DNA from: a virus
Lineage: Duplodnaviria > Caudoviricetes
DNA length: 34,919 nt
Reading direction: 5' to 3' (one strand)
IMG/VR virus record: IMGVR_UViG_3300027653_000036
Span: 1-34,919 of that record
Position 1 is the first letter of the stretch; the number at the start of each line of letters is the position of its first letter. The notes beneath the pieces were generated by a model that was not told the origin of the DNA, ran no database searches, and was given only the letters and a program-made list of their open reading frames with translations. A program made the position numbers and the translations under genes. Of the stretch, positions 3,649 to 13,252 are shown in pieces.

Positions 3649-3859
3649 ATACAATTCTTCTTTCTGCTCCGCAGTTCTCTAATATTTCTTCTTCTCTATA
3701 AGACAAATCGTCTATTAAGTAAATATCATCTTCATATACAAATATCTCGTCACCTTCGTAAACGTCATTACCTAATGCATCGATTCCGTAATATCTGCGT
3801 TCTTCATAACCCGCTGGATAGCCTGTTCTTTCGATTTCTTTAATCATTGGATGATCCAT
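3647..3859 (-). CDS. YqaI-like phage protein
   Basis: MDHPMIKEIERTGYP...DALGNDVYEGD pattern; ATG 3859 with RBS GGGGTG. Confidence 0.65.
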   Translation of the reverse strand: MDHPMIKEIERTGYPAGYEERRYYGIDALGNDVYEGDEIFVYEDDIYLIDDLSYREEEILENCGAERRIV

Positions 3860-3864
3860 TATTT

Positions 3865-4083
3865 TCACCCCCAAGTACCATCTGGATAATATTTGTACCA
3901 CTCATGCTTATAGTGGACTTCAAAACATTTTTCTTTTTGATTGATTTTGACCGACTTTAAATTTTCGATTGAGTGTTTCTCTTTTTCAGCTTCACTCATG
4001 CTCGACAAATGATTATGTCGAATCATACTAAACATTGCTTTTGTCGCTTTGTTAAACTTACTGAAACCTTTCACACTTTCCAT
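3865..4083 (-). CDS. Hypothetical protein
   Basis: 72 aa, RBS GAGGTGA. Confidence 0.75.
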   Translation of the reverse strand: MESVKGFSKFNKATKAMFSMIRHNHLSSMSEAEKEKHSIENLKSVKINQKEKCFEVHYKHEWYKYYPDGTWG

Positions 4084-4087
4084 AAAC

Positions 4088-4264
4088 TCACCTCACTAAC
4101 AAGATTTCTTCTGGCAAAACTCGCCCAGGATTAACGCCTTTATTCTTAAATAGATGATGTCCTTCTTTCGTCGGATATTTCTTGTGCAAAGTCCTTAAAC
4201 AATCCGCTTTGCTACCTTTTGCATAAACCTTATTAGTTCTTAGACCGATCGCTTTGTAGATCAA
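4088..4264 (-). CDS. Hypothetical basic protein (58 aa)
   Basis: Manual ORF MIYKAIGLRTNKVYAKG..., TTG start with RBS AGGAGG; fills the operon gap. Confidence 0.7.
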   Translation of the reverse strand: MIYKAIGLRTNKVYAKGSKADCLRTLHKKYPTKEGHHLFKNKGVNPGRVLPEEILLVR

Positions 4265-4275
4265 CTCAATCCCTC

Positions 4276-4380
4276 CTAAAAACTTTTTATAAAACCGAAT
4301 ATGATGAGCAGGATGATCAGAACCTCAAAACTCGCAATCAACAAATCTCGAAAATTATAATCCTTAAACAAATTTTTCAT
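4276..4380 (-). CDS. Small single-TM membrane protein (34 aa)
   Basis: MKNLFKDYNFRDLLIASFEVLIILLIIFGFIKSF; RBS AAGGGGTG. Confidence 0.6.
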   Translation of the reverse strand: MKNLFKDYNFRDLLIASFEVLIILLIIFGFIKSF

Positions 4381-4443
4381 TCGAACAACACCCCTTTAAT
4401 GTCGTAATAGACACAGACTAATAGTGCCAGCCCTATCCAAACG

Positions 4444-4656
4444 TTAATCGTTAACGCTATTCCCGCCATGCACGATAGAGCCAATGAGGATAACTGTTTC
4501 ATCTGAACTCAACCTTTCTACTTCGTTAATTGATTTGAGTGCGTCTTCAAGTAGCATTCTTGTAAGTCTTAAATTTCCAACCGATACACTAACTCGTGCT
4601 AATTTAATACAGTCGTCAATGCATTTAACCTCTCTTGCGATTAACTGATCTTTCAT
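4444..4656 (-). CDS. Hypothetical protein
   Basis: 70 aa, RBS AGGAGG, ATGA overlap with the upstream gene. Confidence 0.7.
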   Translation of the reverse strand: MKDQLIAREVKCIDDCIKLARVSVSVGNLRLTRMLLEDALKSINEVERLSSDETVILIGSIVHGGNSVND

Positions 4657-5252: not shown

Positions 5253-6056
5253 TTAGATCAACTCCTTGTTAGGTTTTATGTTATTTTTTATAGCCATTTC
5301 TTTAACGACTGTTACGTAAATTTCTTTCAATCTGTCATCTTCTGAAATGACATCCATTTTGTTAGCACGGTCAATTGCAGTTTTTGATGCTCCTGCTTTT
5401 CTCATTCGCTCACGTTTGTTTTCTAAGCGAATATCGAGATTACATCTAGCACGATCTTCGAGACGTTTATATGATTCGCTTCTAGTTTCACGGTAAGCAT
5501 CTAACGAATTTTTAGTTTTAGAGATTTTAACTATTAAGTCATTAACTTCTTTTCGCCAGTTCTTTGGATTGATTATGAAAATTTGTCGAACATCTGAAAT
5601 TTCTTGTTTCGCTTCTCGTACTTCATTTTTAACTTCTTTAGTTTCCAATTCTTGTCTAGCTAAAGACTTGAGCATATTGTTCATGATTTGTAGTTCTGGG
5701 CTTAGTTGTGTTGTATCGATGTTGTAGCTACCTGTTTTGCGGATTGATGGTAAAACTTCCGATGTAATCCATTTTCTAAATTTTTTAGCTTCTGGCTTTC
5801 GGCTGTCCAGAATTACATCGTATAGACCATCTTCATCTACATAAGTTGCAATTTGAGTTCTTCCTAACCTATCAACGATGGGGTGATTATAAATCACGTC
5901 ATCATCTAAACGCCTTTTAACTCCTGCAACTTGTCCAAGTCCTAAAATGTTACATAGATCTCTAAGCAAAAACTTTGGTTCACCGTCATTGAAAATTGTT
6001 AATTCTTTACCTTCAAATACTTTTGATATGTGCTCAACTGAATTCAACTGACTCAT
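5253..6056 (-). CDS. BRO-N domain phage antirepressor
   Basis: EDGLYDVILDSRKPEAKKFRKWITSEVLPSIRKTGSY. Confidence 0.9.
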   Translation of the reverse strand: MSQLNSVEHISKVFEGKELTIFNDGEPKFLLRDLCNILGLGQVAGVKRRLDDDVIYNHPIVDRLGRTQIATYVDEDGLYDVILDSRKPEAKKFRKWITSEVLPSIRKTGSYNIDTTQLSPELQIMNNMLKSLARQELETKEVKNEVREAKQEISDVRQIFIINPKNWRKEVNDLIVKISKTKNSLDAYRETRSESYKRLEDRARCNLDIRLENKRERMRKAGASKTAIDRANKMDVISEDDRLKEIYVTVVKEMAIKNNIKPNKELI

Positions 6057-7747: not shown

Positions 7748-8251
7748 ATGAATCATACCGAAAGATTTATTGCTCGATTCTATCAATCTATAAACAAAAC
7801 GCAGCCAGAAAATTTAACGATCGAGTGTATTTCTGACAAGTTAAACATTGAAGTATGCTATTGGCATCGATCAAGTGCGATGTCTGAGCTAAACGGTGAG
7901 TATATGCTGTTTATAAATGAAAAATTAAGCGAACAGCAACAATGGCAAGAGTTTGGGCATGAGATGTGTCACTATTTTCGTGATCGTTCTAATAGAAATC
8001 TTTTGTTTAGTAGTTTTGTAGATTATAGCGAAACAAAAGCAGATTATTTTGCGTATCATTTCTGCGTGCCAACTTTTATGTTATGTGAAATTAAAGGAGT
8101 TGATGTGTATGACGTGATGAATCTATTTAATGTCGAGTTTGATTTTGCACTACGGCGATTAGAGATGTACCAAAACAAGATTTTAAGCAGGAGTGAAAAG
8201 TTATGGCAAAAGGACATGCACGACCGCGTGGAAACGGCAAATGGCAATTAG
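7748..8251 (+). CDS. immA: ImmA/IrrE-family metalloprotease (anti-repressor)
   Basis: HEMCH (HExxH) motif plus ETKADYFA; lies between the repressor and the integrase. Confidence 0.9.
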   Translation: MNHTERFIARFYQSINKTQPENLTIECISDKLNIEVCYWHRSSAMSELNGEYMLFINEKLSEQQQWQEFGHEMCHYFRDRSNRNLLFSSFVDYSETKADYFAYHFCVPTFMLCEIKGVDVYDVMNLFNVEFDFALRRLEMYQNKILSRSEKLWQKDMHDRVETANGN

Positions 8252-9453
8252 AAGTCGATTTAGGTAGTTACACTGATCCGAAAACCGGCAAAGTAAAAAG
8301 GCACAGAAAATTTAAAACGATTACAGCAAAAAATCAAAGTGAAGCTGACACGAAACTTGCAAAATTTGTTGTAGAACTAACAAGTGGAGAGTATCATGAG
8401 CCAAAAAAAATTAATTTTGTAGATTTTGTCAATGAACATTGGTTATCAAAATGTGCAACAAAACGTTTGTCACATACTACATTAGAAACGCATATTGAAT
8501 ATTTAGAAAAGCGTATTCTTCCCGCTTTTCAGTATTTTAGACTAGATCAAATAAAACCGATTCACATTATTGATTTTTTGGACAACCTTCAAGAGGATGG
8601 TATGAGGTTAGATAAAGAAAAAGACGAGGAAGGAAATCTTGTTAAGAAAAAAGGTAAATTAGCAAGTAGCACGATTTTTTATCATTACAGAATTTTAAAT
8701 AACATTTTTAATTTTGCAGTAGAAATTAAGTTTTTAAAAGAGTCACCACTTGTTGGTGTGCAAAAACCGTCTGTGGATTACAAAGAATCAAATGTCTATA
8801 ACGATGAAGAAGCATATAAGCTATTGCAATGCTTAGAATCAGAGACAGACGTACCGCATTGGCAAGTAATAGTTAAGTTAGCAATCACGACTGGAATGCG
8901 GCGATCAGAATTGTTTGGACTAGAATTCAAGCACATTGATTTAGATAACAAAGTAATACATGTTAGACAAGCATTGACTTATTCTACAAGAGACGGCTAC
9001 CAGATACACGAGATTAAGAAAGGAAGTCGCAGTGCTAAAAAACGTGATATTGTTTTGTCTGATGCTTTGATTGAACCAATTGAAAAATTGAAATTGCAAC
9101 GAAAAACTGAACAGTTTGCACTAAAAAAAGAAGATAGATGGAGGAAAGGAAAACACGATTTCGTATTGTGCGATGAAACAGGAAAACCGTTTCATCCTCA
9201 GTCGATGGCAAACTGGTGGAAAAGATTTTTAAAACGTCATAAATTAAAGTACATTAACATTCATGCGTTGAGACATACTTCGGCAACATTGCTAATAAAT
9301 GAAGGTGTGCATCCAAAAATTATTAGTGAGCGTTTAGGACATGCAGATATAAAAACGACGATGAACATTTACGGTCACGCACTTAAAAAGGCAGATAAAA
9401 TTGCTACTGCTAAATTGGATAATGTACTTTTTAGAGACAGCAAAACACAATGA
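8203..9453 (+). CDS. int: Tyrosine integrase
   Basis: TGMRRSE, HALRH, LGH and YGH catalytic motifs; N-terminal arm-binding domain. Confidence 0.97.
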   Translation: MAKGHARPRGNGKWQLEVDLGSYTDPKTGKVKRHRKFKTITAKNQSEADTKLAKFVVELTSGEYHEPKKINFVDFVNEHWLSKCATKRLSHTTLETHIEYLEKRILPAFQYFRLDQIKPIHIIDFLDNLQEDGMRLDKEKDEEGNLVKKKGKLASSTIFYHYRILNNIFNFAVEIKFLKESPLVGVQKPSVDYKESNVYNDEEAYKLLQCLESETDVPHWQVIVKLAITTGMRRSELFGLEFKHIDLDNKVIHVRQALTYSTRDGYQIHEIKKGSRSAKKRDIVLSDALIEPIEKLKLQRKTEQFALKKEDRWRKGKHDFVLCDETGKPFHPQSMANWWKRFLKRHKLKYINIHALRHTSATLLINEGVHPKIISERLGHADIKTTMNIYGHALKKADKIATAKLDNVLFRDSKTQ

Positions 9454-9475: not shown

Positions 9476-9497
9476 TGCCGTCAAACTGCCGTCAAAA
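9476..9497. repeat. Integrase arm-type sites (left pair)
   Basis: TGCCGTCAAA twice with 11-bp period. Confidence 0.75.
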
Positions 9498-9570: not shown

Positions 9571-9614
9571 AGCTTCCAGCCGGATTTGAACCGGCGACCT
9601 CTTCCTTACCATGG
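9571..9614 (-). other. attP core: 3' half of tRNA-Thr(GGT)
   Basis: Minus strand reads CCATGGTAAGGAAGAGGTCGCCGGTTCAAATCCGGCTGGAAGCT: anticodon loop with GGT, T-arm and 3' acceptor strand. The 5' half is absent. Confidence 0.9.
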
Positions 9615-9719: not shown

Positions 9720-9740
9720 TGCCGTCATTCTGCCGTCAAA
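9720..9740. repeat. Integrase arm-type sites (right pair)
   Basis: TGCCGTCA twice with 11-bp period, same orientation as the left pair. Confidence 0.75.
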
Positions 9741-9795: not shown

Positions 9796-9960
9796 ATGCA
9801 CGATATTACTGATTATATAAAAATGATAGCGGATGGAATGGGAGTAGAGTTAAGCGATGAAAGACTAAAGACAGTCGCTCACGATCTACTCAACCATCGA
9901 GACTACAATAAGATGCTCTCTTATCTTGAAAACTCAATACGTGCAATAAAGGACGCTTAA
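9796..9960 (+). CDS. Small hypothetical protein (54 aa)
   Basis: MHDITDYIKMIADGMGVELSDERLK...; RBS AGGAGG, with its own promoter and terminator. Confidence 0.75.
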   Translation: MHDITDYIKMIADGMGVELSDERLKTVAHDLLNHRDYNKMLSYLENSIRAIKDA

Positions 9961-9973
9961 TGCGTTCTTTTTT
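9948..9973 (+). terminator. Intrinsic terminator
   Basis: AAAGGACGC..GCGTTCTTT followed by a T run. Confidence 0.7.
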
Positions 9974-10073: not shown

Positions 10074-10102
10074 TTGACGTACTTTAAAAAGTACGATATA
10101 AT
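10074..10102 (+). promoter_or_regulatory. Strong sigma-A promoter with palindromic operator (copy 1)
   Basis: TTGACG-17-TATAAT; CGTACTTT-AA-AAAGTACG at 10078-10095. Confidence 0.88.
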
Positions 10103-10156
10103 ATAATTAAGCAGTCAGGGAGATGCATAAAAAACAAATCAAAGGGAGCGATTGAA

Positions 10157-10540
10157 ATGATGAGACAAGTAATGACAAAAGCGGTAGCAATTGCAAGAAC
10201 TTTAGAAGGTGACTGGGTAGCTAGAATGAAGATGGCTCTTAAAATGGCTTGGGCGATCATTAAGAACGAAAGCAAGAAAACAATGGAAGATATAGCAGAA
10301 ATAATTAAGTCAAAATTAAATGGTGTGCAAGTTAATGTATGGGAGCGTTACGGAAAAAGACGTATCTACATCAATAAAGGTTATAAAAATACTGTAGCAA
10401 TGTTAGAGTTTGACCAAGACGATAATTACATTGGTGATTATCGAGAGTTAGGTCCAATGGATTTAATGGCAGCGGGACAAAACGGAGTTGAAGACGAGAT
10501 CATCGCAATCAACGAAATAAAAAAGGAGTTAGTTGCTTAA
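10157..10540 (+). CDS. Hypothetical protein, candidate anti-defence protein
   Basis: 127 aa, RBS AAGGGAG, first gene behind the operator-controlled promoter. Confidence 0.8.
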   Translation: MMRQVMTKAVAIARTLEGDWVARMKMALKMAWAIIKNESKKTMEDIAEIIKSKLNGVQVNVWERYGKRRIYINKGYKNTVAMLEFDQDDNYIGDYRELGPMDLMAAGQNGVEDEIIAINEIKKELVA

Positions 10541-11019
10541 TGGAAAAACGAGGACATAACTTTTTGGATATAACAGGCAAAAGATTTGGGCGTTTAATTG
10601 CAGTTAAACCGGTGACCGGAGTGGGAAAGACTGTATGGCTTTGTAAATGCGATTGTGGCAATGAAAAAGAAATTCTTGTGTCGTATTTAACGAGCGGTGA
10701 TACAAAGTCGTGCGGATGTTTAAAAGAAGAATTAGAAGAAAAACATCTGCGTGAAAAATATGATGATAAACGTGTTGATGGTGTGGCAATGCATTTATTT
10801 GGAGATGAACCTAGAAAAGATAGCAAGACCGGTTATAGAGGGGTTTTTGAATATCGTACAAGAGTATCTAAGCAATTGCGTTATGGTGCATGGATAACTG
10901 TTGCAGGAAAACGATATTATAAAAAAGGTTTTGAAACTGCAGAAGATGCTTATTATAACGGTAGATTAAAATTAGAAAAAGAATATTTACCTAAAAAGGA
11001 TGATAAAAATGATAATTGA
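10540..11019 (+). CDS. AP2-domain DNA-binding protein with N-terminal Cys-rich motif
   Basis: DITGKRFGRL...WLCKCDCGN...SCGC, then TGYRGV...Y.AWI...F.TAEDA (AP2-like). Confidence 0.82.
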   Translation: MEKRGHNFLDITGKRFGRLIAVKPVTGVGKTVWLCKCDCGNEKEILVSYLTSGDTKSCGCLKEELEEKHLREKYDDKRVDGVAMHLFGDEPRKDSKTGYRGVFEYRTRVSKQLRYGAWITVAGKRYYKKGFETAEDAYYNGRLKLEKEYLPKKDDKNDN

Positions 11020-11461
11020 TACAAACAAAGTACGAGCGTTATTGGATGACAAGTCGGTCACTTACGATCACATATCAGATGTTACTGGATTGAGTAAGGG
11101 AGCGATCTACCCTTACCGATCTGGTAAACGTGATATAACAGCGATGAGTATAGAGGTTGCTAACAAGCTACAAACGTTATATGAGGATTTACAAAAAGGA
11201 GATGGTGACGTGGATGTTAAAATCAAGGGTTTGAAAAAAGCTGTTGGAGAGTTTAATGATTGGAAGGAGCAAGCAAGGATCTATTTTGATAAAGAAGAAT
11301 TAGAAGTATGGACGAACGTTTATCCTGGTGGCAATAAGTCTTGGGAGGAGTACCATGATAAAAACATTGTGGAAGTAATTAACAAACGTGGTATGGTCGC
11401 TAATGACAATGATTATTTATCAATGAGAGAGTTAAAAAATATTTGTGTAAATAAGTTGTAG
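11009..11461 (+). CDS. HTH-fusion protein (Aca-like N-terminal HTH plus unknown C-terminal domain)
   Basis: LL...ISDVTGLSKGAIYPYRSGKRDITAMSIEVANKL HTH; in-frame internal RBS/GTG at 11210. Confidence 0.8.
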   Translation: MIIDTNKVRALLDDKSVTYDHISDVTGLSKGAIYPYRSGKRDITAMSIEVANKLQTLYEDLQKGDGDVDVKIKGLKKAVGEFNDWKEQARIYFDKEELEVWTNVYPGGNKSWEEYHDKNIVEVINKRGMVANDNDYLSMRELKNICVNKL

Positions 11462-11478
11462 AATCTTCAATTTGCCCC

Positions 11479-11507
11479 TTGACGTACTTTTAAAAGTACG
11501 ATATAAT
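11479..11507 (+). promoter_or_regulatory. Strong sigma-A promoter with palindromic operator (copy 2)
   Basis: TTGACG-17-TATAAT; perfect palindrome CGTACTTTTAAAAGTACG at 11483-11500. Confidence 0.88.
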
Positions 11508-11537
11508 GAGTGTAACGAATCCAAGGGAGAGATTGAA

Positions 11538-11915
11538 ATGATCGATAAAATTAGAGAGTTAGAAAAAGAATTCTGCTGGATAAACGGAGACGGAAGCTAC
11601 ATAGTTGGAGTAAGATTTGAAAGTAAAAACAGAGAAATCGGAGAAGAGATCGAAAACAGCCGCCATAACTTAGATCGAGAAGACGAAAGAGAAATGCCGG
11701 AATACGGTACAGAAGAGTATGAGGAAGCGTTTGAACTAGACGGAGCGAGTGCTTATGAAATAGATGCTATCGTAGAAATGCTAGAAAATGGCGTACAGTT
11801 TGACGGAGAGCATTGTTACTTTATCATAGGTACAAACGAGACAAACTTAGACGATGCACTTGATTACGGTGAGGTAGTAGTTGAAAACGCAAAAGTAGCT
11901 TATAAGTTTTACTAA
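11538..11915 (+). CDS. Highly acidic hypothetical protein (125 aa), candidate anti-defence protein
   Basis: ATG 11538 after RBS AAGGGAG; 34 D/E versus 11 K/R by manual count. Confidence 0.8.
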   Translation: MIDKIRELEKEFCWINGDGSYIVGVRFESKNREIGEEIENSRHNLDREDEREMPEYGTEEYEEAFELDGASAYEIDAIVEMLENGVQFDGEHCYFIIGTNETNLDDALDYGEVVVENAKVAYKFY

Positions 11916-11916
11916 G

Positions 11917-11942
11917 AGAGGGCAACTAAGCCCTCTTTTTTT
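11917..11942 (+). terminator. Intrinsic terminator between the island and the convergent lysin gene
   Basis: AGAGGGC-aactaa-GCCCTCT followed by a T run. Confidence 0.8.
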
Positions 11943-12828
11943 AAAACGTACCTGCATTAAGTCTCCGTTGCAGCTCTTTTACTACTAATGACGGACGTGA
12001 CAATTTACCGTCAACAATAGTTCCGAGATATTTTTGTAATGCTCTAATTGTAGCGGAACCTAATAATCCATCAACTTTTAAACCGCCTAGCTTACGTTGT
12101 AATGCTCTTACGACTAGACTATTACCACTATTACTAAAACGTATTGTACTACCATAAAAAGCGTTAGTGACAGCGTTACGTCTTTGATTACTGATAATAC
12201 CATCTACAGTTGTACCTAATGCACTTTGTAACGCACGAGTAGTAGCGTTGCCCCATTTGCCATCAACTTTTAAACTTGCACCTGTTGACGTATTTTTAAC
12301 AGTTGTACTTGCAGTCTGTTTTTTAGGTGGTTTGTATGTTTTGTTGCCTCCTAATTCAAATATAAAATCATTCCACGTAACACCTTTTTCGCCCGATCGT
12401 AAATAGCGTGGACAATTCTTACCGCTAGCTTGATTATGTTGGATAACATTGCTTACGGATATGTTGTACTTGTCCATCAAATACTTAACGAGATCGACAG
12501 CATTATCAACAGCCTTTTCAAAGTCTCCGTCACTGTTTACGCATATTTCAATACCAATTGATTGTTCGTTGTACCTTCTATTGCCAGCGTGCCAGCACTG
12601 TGCGTTATCGCTAAACGATTGGATTATTTCTTTATCGTCTACTTGATAATGCCAACTAGCATTACGACTGTTACCGTTAGCTTGCAATCGTCCGTGAGCA
12701 TCTGCATCGGCACCTTTTGACGTGTTTGCCGTTTCGTGGATTACGATATATTTTTTTGAGTTAATACCGCTATAAGTGACTTTGTCAGCTACGCTTTTTG
12801 AAACGATATTTTTGCGTATTTTAACCAT
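11941..12828 (-). CDS. Endolysin, N-acetylmuramoyl-L-alanine amidase (Amidase_2) with peptidoglycan-binding repeats
   Basis: IVIHETAN, ASWHY, WHAG, SIGIEIC, HN...KNCP motifs; C-terminal VDG..G..T.RALQ repeats. Confidence 0.95.
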   Translation of the reverse strand: MVKIRKNIVSKSVADKVTYSGINSKKYIVIHETANTSKGADADAHGRLQANGNSRNASWHYQVDDKEIIQSFSDNAQCWHAGNRRYNEQSIGIEICVNSDGDFEKAVDNAVDLVKYLMDKYNISVSNVIQHNQASGKNCPRYLRSGEKGVTWNDFIFELGGNKTYKPPKKQTASTTVKNTSTGASLKVDGKWGNATTRALQSALGTTVDGIISNQRRNAVTNAFYGSTIRFSNSGNSLVVRALQRKLGGLKVDGLLGSATIRALQKYLGTIVDGKLSRPSLVVKELQRRLNAGTF

Positions 12829-13252
12829 TCTTATCATCCTCACTTAAAAATTCGTCTTTAATTTCTTCCTCTACACGTTTTCCGCTAGATTCAATAGATC
12901 GTAATTTTTCTGCTAGTGACGTGGGTACGAGTACGCCAACTTTTGCAAGATTTTCTAATATGGATAAACCTTCGTTTGCAATATAAAAAAGCACTGTCGC
13001 ATAAGCAACAGCACCCTGTAATCCCAATATTTGATCAACCACATTAGCCAAGATGATAACCACCAAAATTAATATTTTTCGTGCATATCCAAATAGCGAT
13101 TTACGACTCCAAAGATTTTCATTTTTAATTGCTTTTGCTACACCTGTCACGATGTCTAGTGCCATCAAAAGTAATAATAAATGTAAAAACTTTACGTCTC
13201 CAAATAGAAAAAATCGTGCAGCTTCTAAATATTCCAAGTTAACACCGCCCAT
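12821..13252 (-). CDS. Holin (phage holin 4/toxin-secretion family)
   Basis: TM segments, DIVTG, NEGLSILENL; directly upstream of the lysin. Confidence 0.92.
   Translation of the reverse strand: MGGVNLEYLEAARFFLFGDVKFLHLLLLLMALDIVTGVAKAIKNENLWSRKSLFGYARKILILVVIILANVVDQILGLQGAVAYATVLFYIANEGLSILENLAKVGVLVPTSLAEKLRSIESSGKRVEEEIKDEFLSEDDKNG

Follow-up and report, generated by a model that had tools for sequence, protein, structure and literature searches.

A predicted self-repressing anti-CRISPR cassette in a temperate phage and its acidic protein with a candidate ADP-ribosyltransferase fold

What do four small genes contribute to a temperate phage when they lie between its attachment site and its lysin gene and face its late operon? 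The genes in question, termed A to D, are found in the virus record IMGVR_UViG_3300027653_000036 of IMG/VR, a stretch of 34,919 nucleotides that was analysed as a whole (the window) and that CheckV estimates to be 72% complete. They are located between attP and an amidase lysin gene (Table 1). The original prediction had read them as an autoregulated anti-CRISPR (Acr) locus whose effectors could not be matched to any named Acr. Comparison of sequences and predicted structures makes it very likely that the cassette is a real autoregulated anti-CRISPR unit of an architecture known from Aca11, AcrIIA13-15 and CasPR loci. That this self-repressing unit is most likely aimed at type I-C systems, with gene D encoding a predicted Cascade inactivator of ADP-ribosyltransferase (ART) fold, is a reading we consider fairly likely. 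The new element of the cassette would be gene D, a member of an unnamed acidic family and a candidate R-S-E ART according to modelling.

Gene C and the predicted control of the cassette

By profile and by predicted structure, the N-terminus of the gene C product is a helix-turn-helix (HTH) domain of the Aca11/AcrIIA15 type, in agreement with the HTH-fusion gene pointed out earlier. In the PDB, a profile of 24 homologs matched Aca11 at E 9e-6 and the N-domain of AcrIIA15 at E 5e-6, and the model of gene C could be superimposed on 8jfr with a Z score of 10.9 (root-mean-square deviation (rmsd) 1.2 over 61 residues) and on 9lx2 with 10.6 (rmsd 2.8 over 67 residues). The AcrIIA15 N-domain and Aca11 constitute the top structural matches (Z 10.9, 10.7 and 10.6), followed by a match with a Z score of 7.0. 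Both have been described as repressors acting at inverted repeats of acr promoters (PMC12658196, PMC12282945, PMC10901769).

Genes A to D run on the + strand, the late operon including the lysin gene on the - strand, and a ribosome-binding site (RBS) precedes each of the four start codons. The two near-consensus sigma-A promoters proposed earlier, P1 and P2, have the form TTGACG-17-TATAAT, are 97% identical across 29 nt and are the sole sites in the 34.9 kb that combine a perfect -10 element with a 17-nt spacer and no more than one mismatch at -35. The 18-bp palindrome occurs in the window at P1 and P2 only (0.08 matches expected at ≤3 mismatches). It had been called the same in both promoters, which holds for its presence in each; the two copies are near-identical, not identical, with one mismatch in P1 and a perfect palindrome in P2. 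The closing terminator was recovered as a hairpin of -15.1 kcal/mol with a T run, also detected as an inverted repeat, and is not among the terminator-scanner results for the window. The RBS regions of the window have ends resembling those of a type I repeat, which prompted us to consider a solitary CRISPR repeat there; Rfam gave no match in support, and the idea was rejected.

The arrangement resembles the published Aca11 locus (acrIIA25.1-aca11 and acrIIA3-AP2), in which Aca11 controls two duplicated promoters, and acrIIA3 together with an AP2 gene is transcribed from one of them (PMC12658196, PMC12282945). As far as these sources describe the locus, it shares with the cassette the HTH type, a duplicated promoter with a single inverted repeat that recurs in both -35/-10 spacers, and an AP2-type gene in second place of one operon. 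However, the operator sequence is different, the HTH of gene C is fused to a further domain, and neither is gene A AcrIIA3 nor gene D a named Acr. The HTH type and the common layout support the original reading of an autoregulated acr locus.

We examined relatives of gene C at 36 metagenome loci. The operator is placed in a TTGAC..TATAAT-type promoter in all four close relatives whose contigs reach the promoter (L045-L048, 72-75% identity), with the half-sites kept and the centre variable; the contig of another close relative, L049, ends short of the promoter DNA. Gene C is the sole gene common to these four loci, and in L046 the gene order is shuffled to promoter-D-CasPR-like-C-promoter. This operator was not found at the more distant relatives of gene C. 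We hold it highly probable that P1 and P2 would fire upon entry of the naked genome and that a dimer of the C protein would then bind CGTAC-N8-GTACG, damping both units. The cassette would also offer a clean HTH-operator pair for finding further acr genes. Another observation concerns an unrelated phage (L043:3001-3633), where the operator-promoter stands after the lysin gene and is followed by an acidic gene and a 54-residue gene, which we take to resemble AbrB.

The C-terminal domain of gene C is modular, standing alone in L029, L030, L058 and L067-L077. In L078 it is joined to ArdC-N and in P0056 to an N-terminus of another kind, while in L069 and L073 it adjoins LPD29 genes. Gene C shares with AcrIIA13-15, as described in PMC7104187 and PMC10901769, the N-terminal HTH fold followed by a variable C-terminal domain, which also exists in a stand-alone form like AcrIIA13b. 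It differs from them in having a near-neutral C-terminal domain (isoelectric point (pI) 5.8) that does not match the AcrIIA15 C-domain, in a conserved internal start and in that no Cas9 link was found. The internal start consists of an RBS and an in-frame GTG at 11210; of the ten HTH-fused homologs displayed, seven (the identical copy among them) have an in-frame start at this codon. An identity of gene C as full AcrIIA15 was rejected: the match to the full-length structure 8jfo ends at about residue 65, without a Cas9-inhibiting C-domain. The whole-protein structural search with gene C was filled by HTH matches, and the ESM Atlas search returned no usable match for its C-terminal domain. The L067-L077 contigs, which carry several palindrome-bearing strong promoters and nearby LPD29 genes beside the stand-alone domain, look like anti-defence leading regions of conjugative elements. 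There is an even chance that the gene A product and the C-terminal domain of gene C would act as further anti-defence proteins; the domain is probably also produced separately by initiation at the internal start.

Gene B as a CasPR candidate, and gene A

CasPR is a protein with CapR and AP2 domains that binds inside cas8b or cas9 and blocks transcription, and the characterised CasPR acts during lysogeny, not during lytic infection (bioRxiv 10.64898/2026.02.23.707548). Gene B probably encodes a member of this family, judging from its sequence, and since the family has already been named, it would represent no new one. In common with CasPRIB1/AcrIB14 and CasPRIIA1 as presented in that preprint, the B protein has a single CapR and an AP2-like domain, five cysteines (C35/37/39/58/60) spaced identically to those of CasPRIB1 (C33/35/37/56/58), the equivalent of R149 (R142) and an acr-type position in a temperate phage of Bacillota. 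It is 44-46% identical to Streptococcus phage proteins and 29.8% identical, over 96% of its length, to proteins of Listeria phages 184 and A006 (E 1e-8 to 5e-8). The latter adjoin acrIIA1 or acrIIA1-3 type genes, and the numbering of their Cys and Arg residues equals that of CasPRIB1 as quoted in the preprint, which states the conservation of R138 and R149 for Listeria homologs. The homology of gene B to CasPRIB1 was established via these Listeria proteins with the same residue numbering, not with CasPRIB1's own sequence.

The earlier description of gene B as an AP2-domain gene rests on its full-length homologs, which the Pfam AP2 model matches in L009 (above the cut-off) and in L015 and L046 (below it); the model misses gene B itself. 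Scans of Pfam, PHROGs and NCBIfam gave no Acr name to any of genes A to D, in line with the three effectors left unmatched originally, a reading that has to be revised for gene B, given its likely membership in CasPR. Gene B is likely an effector rather than an unmatched gene or a regulator, as far as sequence comparison can tell. Its only direct family matches are HNH endonuclease PHROGs, and these could instead indicate that A to D form a lysogenic-conversion or superinfection-control moron, with gene B as a decayed DNA-binding remnant of a homing endonuclease or a local regulator. The AP2 genes of Listeria and C. difficile acr loci were earlier found without inhibition (bioRxiv 10.64898/2026.02.23.707548), and some CapR+AP2 genes were inactive when tested elsewhere. 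We regard a moron as very improbable because gene B has no HNH-like motif in its sequence and displays the anatomy of tested CasPRs, because the HTH of gene C is specifically of the Aca11/AcrIIA15 type, and because the type I-C links of the D family described below would be unexpected.

As a CasPR, gene B would rather probably attach, through its Zn-binding CapR module and its AP2 module, within the coding sequence of a cas gene and obstruct RNA polymerase there, chiefly in the lysogen. The original prediction expected a burst of early expression followed by shut-off, which may not be the whole story, since the characterised CasPR works in lysogeny and not in lytic infection.

Gene A has a short N-terminal helical motif in common with Gp111-family proteins. 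The precomputed PF07410.18 annotation was present on 24 of 24 rows, and the local PF07410.16 model gave no match. Gp111-family genes were also seen at 7 of the D loci scanned and beside C homologs in L027, L028 and L048. We rejected an identity of gene A as AcrIIA3, for which NCBIfam gave no match, though its model detects the Listeria protein, and the profile reached only E 0.1 among 11 sequences. Sequence searches of the PDB, profiles included, returned nothing for A, B or D, including no AcrIF11 match for D, and five short motifs of A, C and D are absent from nine supplementary files of PMC7391736.

Predicted fold and conserved residues of gene D

Gene D is the very acidic gene noticed from the start (pI 4.13; 34 Asp and Glu against 11 Lys and Arg). 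It belongs to a family that comprises 216 clusters when grouped at 50% identity and has a median pI of 4.27. The literature searched describes this family nowhere, and a match to a named Acr may exist in Acr sequence lists outside those searched. The ESM Atlas returned no usable match for gene D; a BFVD search gave a single uncharacterised match (E 2.6e-4).

The confidently predicted model of gene D (predicted local distance difference test score 88.7) has its best structural match at a Z score of 5.5 (rmsd 5.7 over 96 residues) and matches Arr with 4.7 (rmsd 3.5 over 83 residues) and the AcrIF11 structure with 2.3. Among the top 50 VIA structural rows, about 30 are folds of ART type, as are 12 of the first 14; Arr, TreX/TreTu, scabin, PARPs, Tpt1 and AcrIF11 are included, and the assignment to the ART family is in part our own assumption. 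As a comparison, no ART-type fold was recognised among the 50 structural rows of gene C.

We aligned gene D with 120 of the 150 listed representatives of its family, leaving out long fusions and fragments. In these 121 sequences, mostly 24-50% identical to gene D, R26 and G69 are invariant (121/121 each), and S/C71 (120/121), D109 (119/121) and E112 (120/120) are nearly or fully so. The combination R-S-E is present in 91 of the 121 sequences and R-[S/C]-E in 119. The conserved residues lie, in R-S-E clade order, on predicted strands at model positions 21-28, 70-73 and 112-116, as placed without a residue-level superposition, and we take the R, S and E of ARTs to follow one another on strands 1, 2 and 5 by convention. 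Remote homologs keep the R, G-T-[C/A] and D-x-x-E, and lose an acidic loop motif. The D domain also forms the C-terminus of phage portal proteins in two homologs and resides inside a 1387-residue protein (P0203, P0216 and P0201). The R-S-E clade of ARTs has been defined in PMC9503650, where portal fusion is a described setting of phage ARTs. The enrichment of ART rows, together with the topology and the residue conservation, makes an R-S-E ART fold likely for gene D. We slightly favour an active NAD-dependent enzyme as the candidate function of the modelled protein.

The strong acidity allows for another explanation, in which the cassette is anti-CRISPR and gene D a stoichiometric DNA mimic on a degenerate ART-like scaffold, with the CasPR silencing type I-C in self-targeting lysogens. 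The pI of gene D and its family, reminiscent of DNA-mimic Acrs such as the AcrIIA15 C-domain, the low structural scores and the finding, described below, of perfect self-targets only where a CasPR-like gene flanks D are consistent with such a mimic. However, the invariant R, G, D and E and the S/C switch across the 121 sequences resemble an active site rather than a charge surface, and the remote homologs drop the acidic loop motif while retaining the candidate catalytic residues. We thus consider a mimic decidedly unlikely and prefer the ART-type enzyme.

Its closest known counterpart for comparison is AcrIF11 (PMC12421852), likewise a small phage protein of ART fold, predicted in the case of gene D, in an Aca-controlled unit. 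The two differ by the lack of sequence similarity, by H-F-H-D in AcrIF11 versus R-S/C-E in gene D, and by the Pseudomonas type I-F versus Bacillota type I-C context, as far as the source covers them. Enzymatic anti-CRISPRs are scarce according to the same source, and in the literature searched, neither type I-C nor Bacillota had an ADP-ribosylating Acr.

Type I-C context, proposed mechanism and the surrounding phage

Which system could the cassette be aimed at? Cas8c was detected in 7 of 8 D-carrying genomes and in G111, so that 8 of the 9 genomes having a strong D homolog are positive. The background is 55 of 151 genomes for Paenibacillaceae and 28 of 151 for the order of G002, which gives 2.6 expected and P ~2e-4 when kinship is ignored and the background of G002 is assumed for G001 and G008. 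Two of three genomes with remote D homologs also have Cas8c. Cas8b TM1802 was found in one of the eight D-carrying genomes, and Cas9_REC in none of the eight, an uninformative result because the control was silent too.

Spacers point in the same direction. We collected 274 spacers from 9 arrays in 12 cas regions of D-carrying genomes only. Seven of them match over at least 30 nt, all within the D locus of their own genome (68.5 of the 537 kb searched). Three of these matches are perfect and have a TTC protospacer-adjacent motif (one in G003, two in G002); a second match in G003 has one mismatch and a TTT flank, and the self-matching spacer of G007 has two seed mismatches. In G111, two spacers point at sequence within the D gene itself, next to TTC and with 2-3 mismatches. 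The sizes and order of the open reading frames (ORFs) fit an intact cas3-cas5-cas8c-cas7, of which Pfam confirmed cas8c only. With an intact type I-C system and perfect self-targets, the lysogen needs an inhibitor or an idle system. The self-targeting of D-carrying prophages by type I-C spacers lends weight to the acr reading of the locus.

So do the neighbours of D homologs, sampled at 24 loci within about 5 kb around D. A CapR-type gene is present at 12 of the 24, in the full CapR+AP2 form at 9; these loci stand for about five independent lineages, as L007 equals L016 and L006, L013, L015 and L017 are 81-97% alike. Further pairs of D and B-like genes occur in L046, L079, L083, L084 and L086. 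In L008, the gene following D (5364-5831) contains a C-terminal, Cas11c-like fragment of Cas8c fused to HTH_17 (E 1.8e-5, below the cut-off) and is a candidate type I-C decoy subunit resembling AcrIB4, a precedent described in bioRxiv 2023.06.24.545427. A solitary full type I-C repeat lies just 3' of D in L009 (5447-5478, - strand) and a shortened one at the D locus of L001 (3150-3179, - strand), both being candidate RNA anti-CRISPRs on sequence grounds. As regards the neighbourhood analysis for known acr genes proposed earlier, acrIIA1 or acrIIA1-3 type genes lie next to the Listeria homologs of B, and CasPR-like genes, a Cas8c fragment and solitary repeats next to D relatives; NCBIfam named no Acr among the neighbouring ORFs of D that were scanned. 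Other features at D loci are near-consensus promoters with palindromic-looking spacers of differing sequences upstream of D in L006, L007, L008, L013, L018 and L025. They suggest that D was captured repeatedly by different Aca-type regulators.

Gene D could also be an NAD/ADP-ribose enzyme or binder that acts on a non-CRISPR defence (restriction, NAD-depleting or ADP-ribose-signalling) or on a host housekeeping protein, and that is a mere passenger in anti-defence islands. The portal and polyvalent-type fusions, the many D loci without a CRISPR-linked neighbour, the ArdC-N gene near D in L019 together with the ArdC-N fused to the domain of gene C, and the NADases and small-molecule modifiers among ART folds (PMC9503650) speak for it. 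It is nevertheless unlikely in view of the excess of Cas8c, the type I-C spacers of G111 aimed at the D gene itself and the I-C-specific neighbours of D.

Several observations weigh against a type I-C-directed cassette with an ART-type gene D. The best Z score of gene D is under the typical background of 7-8 of the tool, Foldseek found nothing for it in the PDB at E ≤0.001 (E above 0.5), and Pfam ART families match none of its 121 family members, for which there is no Pfam name. In G002 and G003, the two genomes with perfect self-targets, D is accompanied by an adjacent CasPR-like gene, and the self-targeting evidence therefore belongs to the cassette type and not to D; G004 and G006, with no CasPR-like gene within 5 kb of D, show no perfect self-target in the arrays tested. 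The self-targeting signal could just as well be due to CasPR or to a different gene. Half of the D loci (12/24) have no CapR-type gene, and NCBIfam named no Acr in the 123 of 169 neighbouring ORFs scanned, with positive controls for AcrIIA2 and AcrIIA3. Gene B departs from CasPR by its identity of about 30% to the Listeria proteins, by a Gly aligned to R138 of CasPRIB1, with two Lys just before, and by the type I-C context of its family, as opposed to the CasPRs characterised in the preprint, which target type I-B or II-A and none I-C (bioRxiv 10.64898/2026.02.23.707548). The same operator-promoter as in the window is found in L043 with no C-type HTH within 3 kb on either side. No match of more than 15 nt to the window was obtained with any of the 274 spacers; the type I-C link holds at the level of the D family, from the genomes of relatives, not from the own host of the window phage.

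For the fairly likely I-C-directed cassette, we tentatively suggest that gene D could act on type I-C Cascade in the way AcrIF11 acts on its type I-F counterpart, by modifying one of the subunits; the acidic surface of gene D might then dock on the DNA-binding face. It is doubtful that gene D founds a widespread R-S-E ART anti-CRISPR family of Bacillota phages that covalently disables type I-C Cascade, having arisen independently of AcrIF11, being delivered through portal fusions in further phages and having as its partner here a CasPR that would be the first to silence type I-C. One cassette would then both poison the existing Cascade through D and stop its resupply through CasPR. An ART-type gene D would be a new enzymatic block of type I-C CRISPR, and with gene B the cassette holds a CasPR candidate that would extend the family to a third CRISPR type. 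The size of the D family, its named candidate catalytic residues and the natural self-targeting host-prophage pairs make the idea directly testable. If gene D is inert or non-enzymatic, the locus would simply add one more ordinary member to a class of acr cassettes that is already known.

Table 1. Coordinates of the cassette and of adjoining features in the window
Feature	Position	Strand	Description
attP core	9571..9614	-	3' half of tRNA-Thr(GGT)
Likely integrase arm repeats around attP	9476-9494 and 9720-9738		
Promoter P1, sigma-A type	10074..10102	+	Palindrome 10078-10095 between -35 and -10
Gene A, 127 aa	10157..10540	+	Gp111-like N-terminal helical motif and C-terminal domain; candidate anti-defence protein
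Gene B, 159 aa	10540..11019	+	One CapR-type Cys cluster (C35/37/39/58/60) and AP2-like domain; CasPR-family candidate
Gene C, 150 aa	11009..11461	+	AcrIIA15/Aca11-type HTH (~aa 1-64) and 83-aa modular domain
Promoter P2	11479..11507	+	Perfect palindrome 11483-11500
Gene D, 125 aa, acidic	11538..11915	+	Predicted ADP-ribosyltransferase-like fold; R26, G69, S/C71, D109, E112 conserved
Intrinsic terminator hairpin	~11914..11942	+	Facing lysin stop
Amidase lysin (late operon)	11941-12843	-	

The phage itself is temperate; it encodes an integrase of the tyrosine type (8203-9453) as well as an Xre repressor and an ImmA-type protease. Its nearest lysin relative, that of Aeribacillus phage AP45 (58.7% identity), points to a host of Bacillaceae type. 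The attP core matches the 3' half of tRNA-Thr(GGT) in all five Bacillales-type genomes searched, and two pairs of an 8-nt repeat in its flanks account for four of the five copies in the window (0.57 expected). Between attP and P1, a 54-residue ORF (9796-9960) comes with a terminator of its own (9948-9970) and a strong RBS; scans of Pfam, PHROGs and NCBIfam gave no match for it. Near the D homolog of L014, a gene at 3716-4648 weakly matches Cas_VVA1548 (E 2.3e-5, just under the cut-off), and we assume that its product is possibly phage ring-nuclease-like. Two D loci contain pistol ribozymes (L019:6698-6769 and L019:8940-9012; L011:8635-8705). The longer metagenome contig L044 carries the same cassette as the window, with a gene C that is 100% identical.

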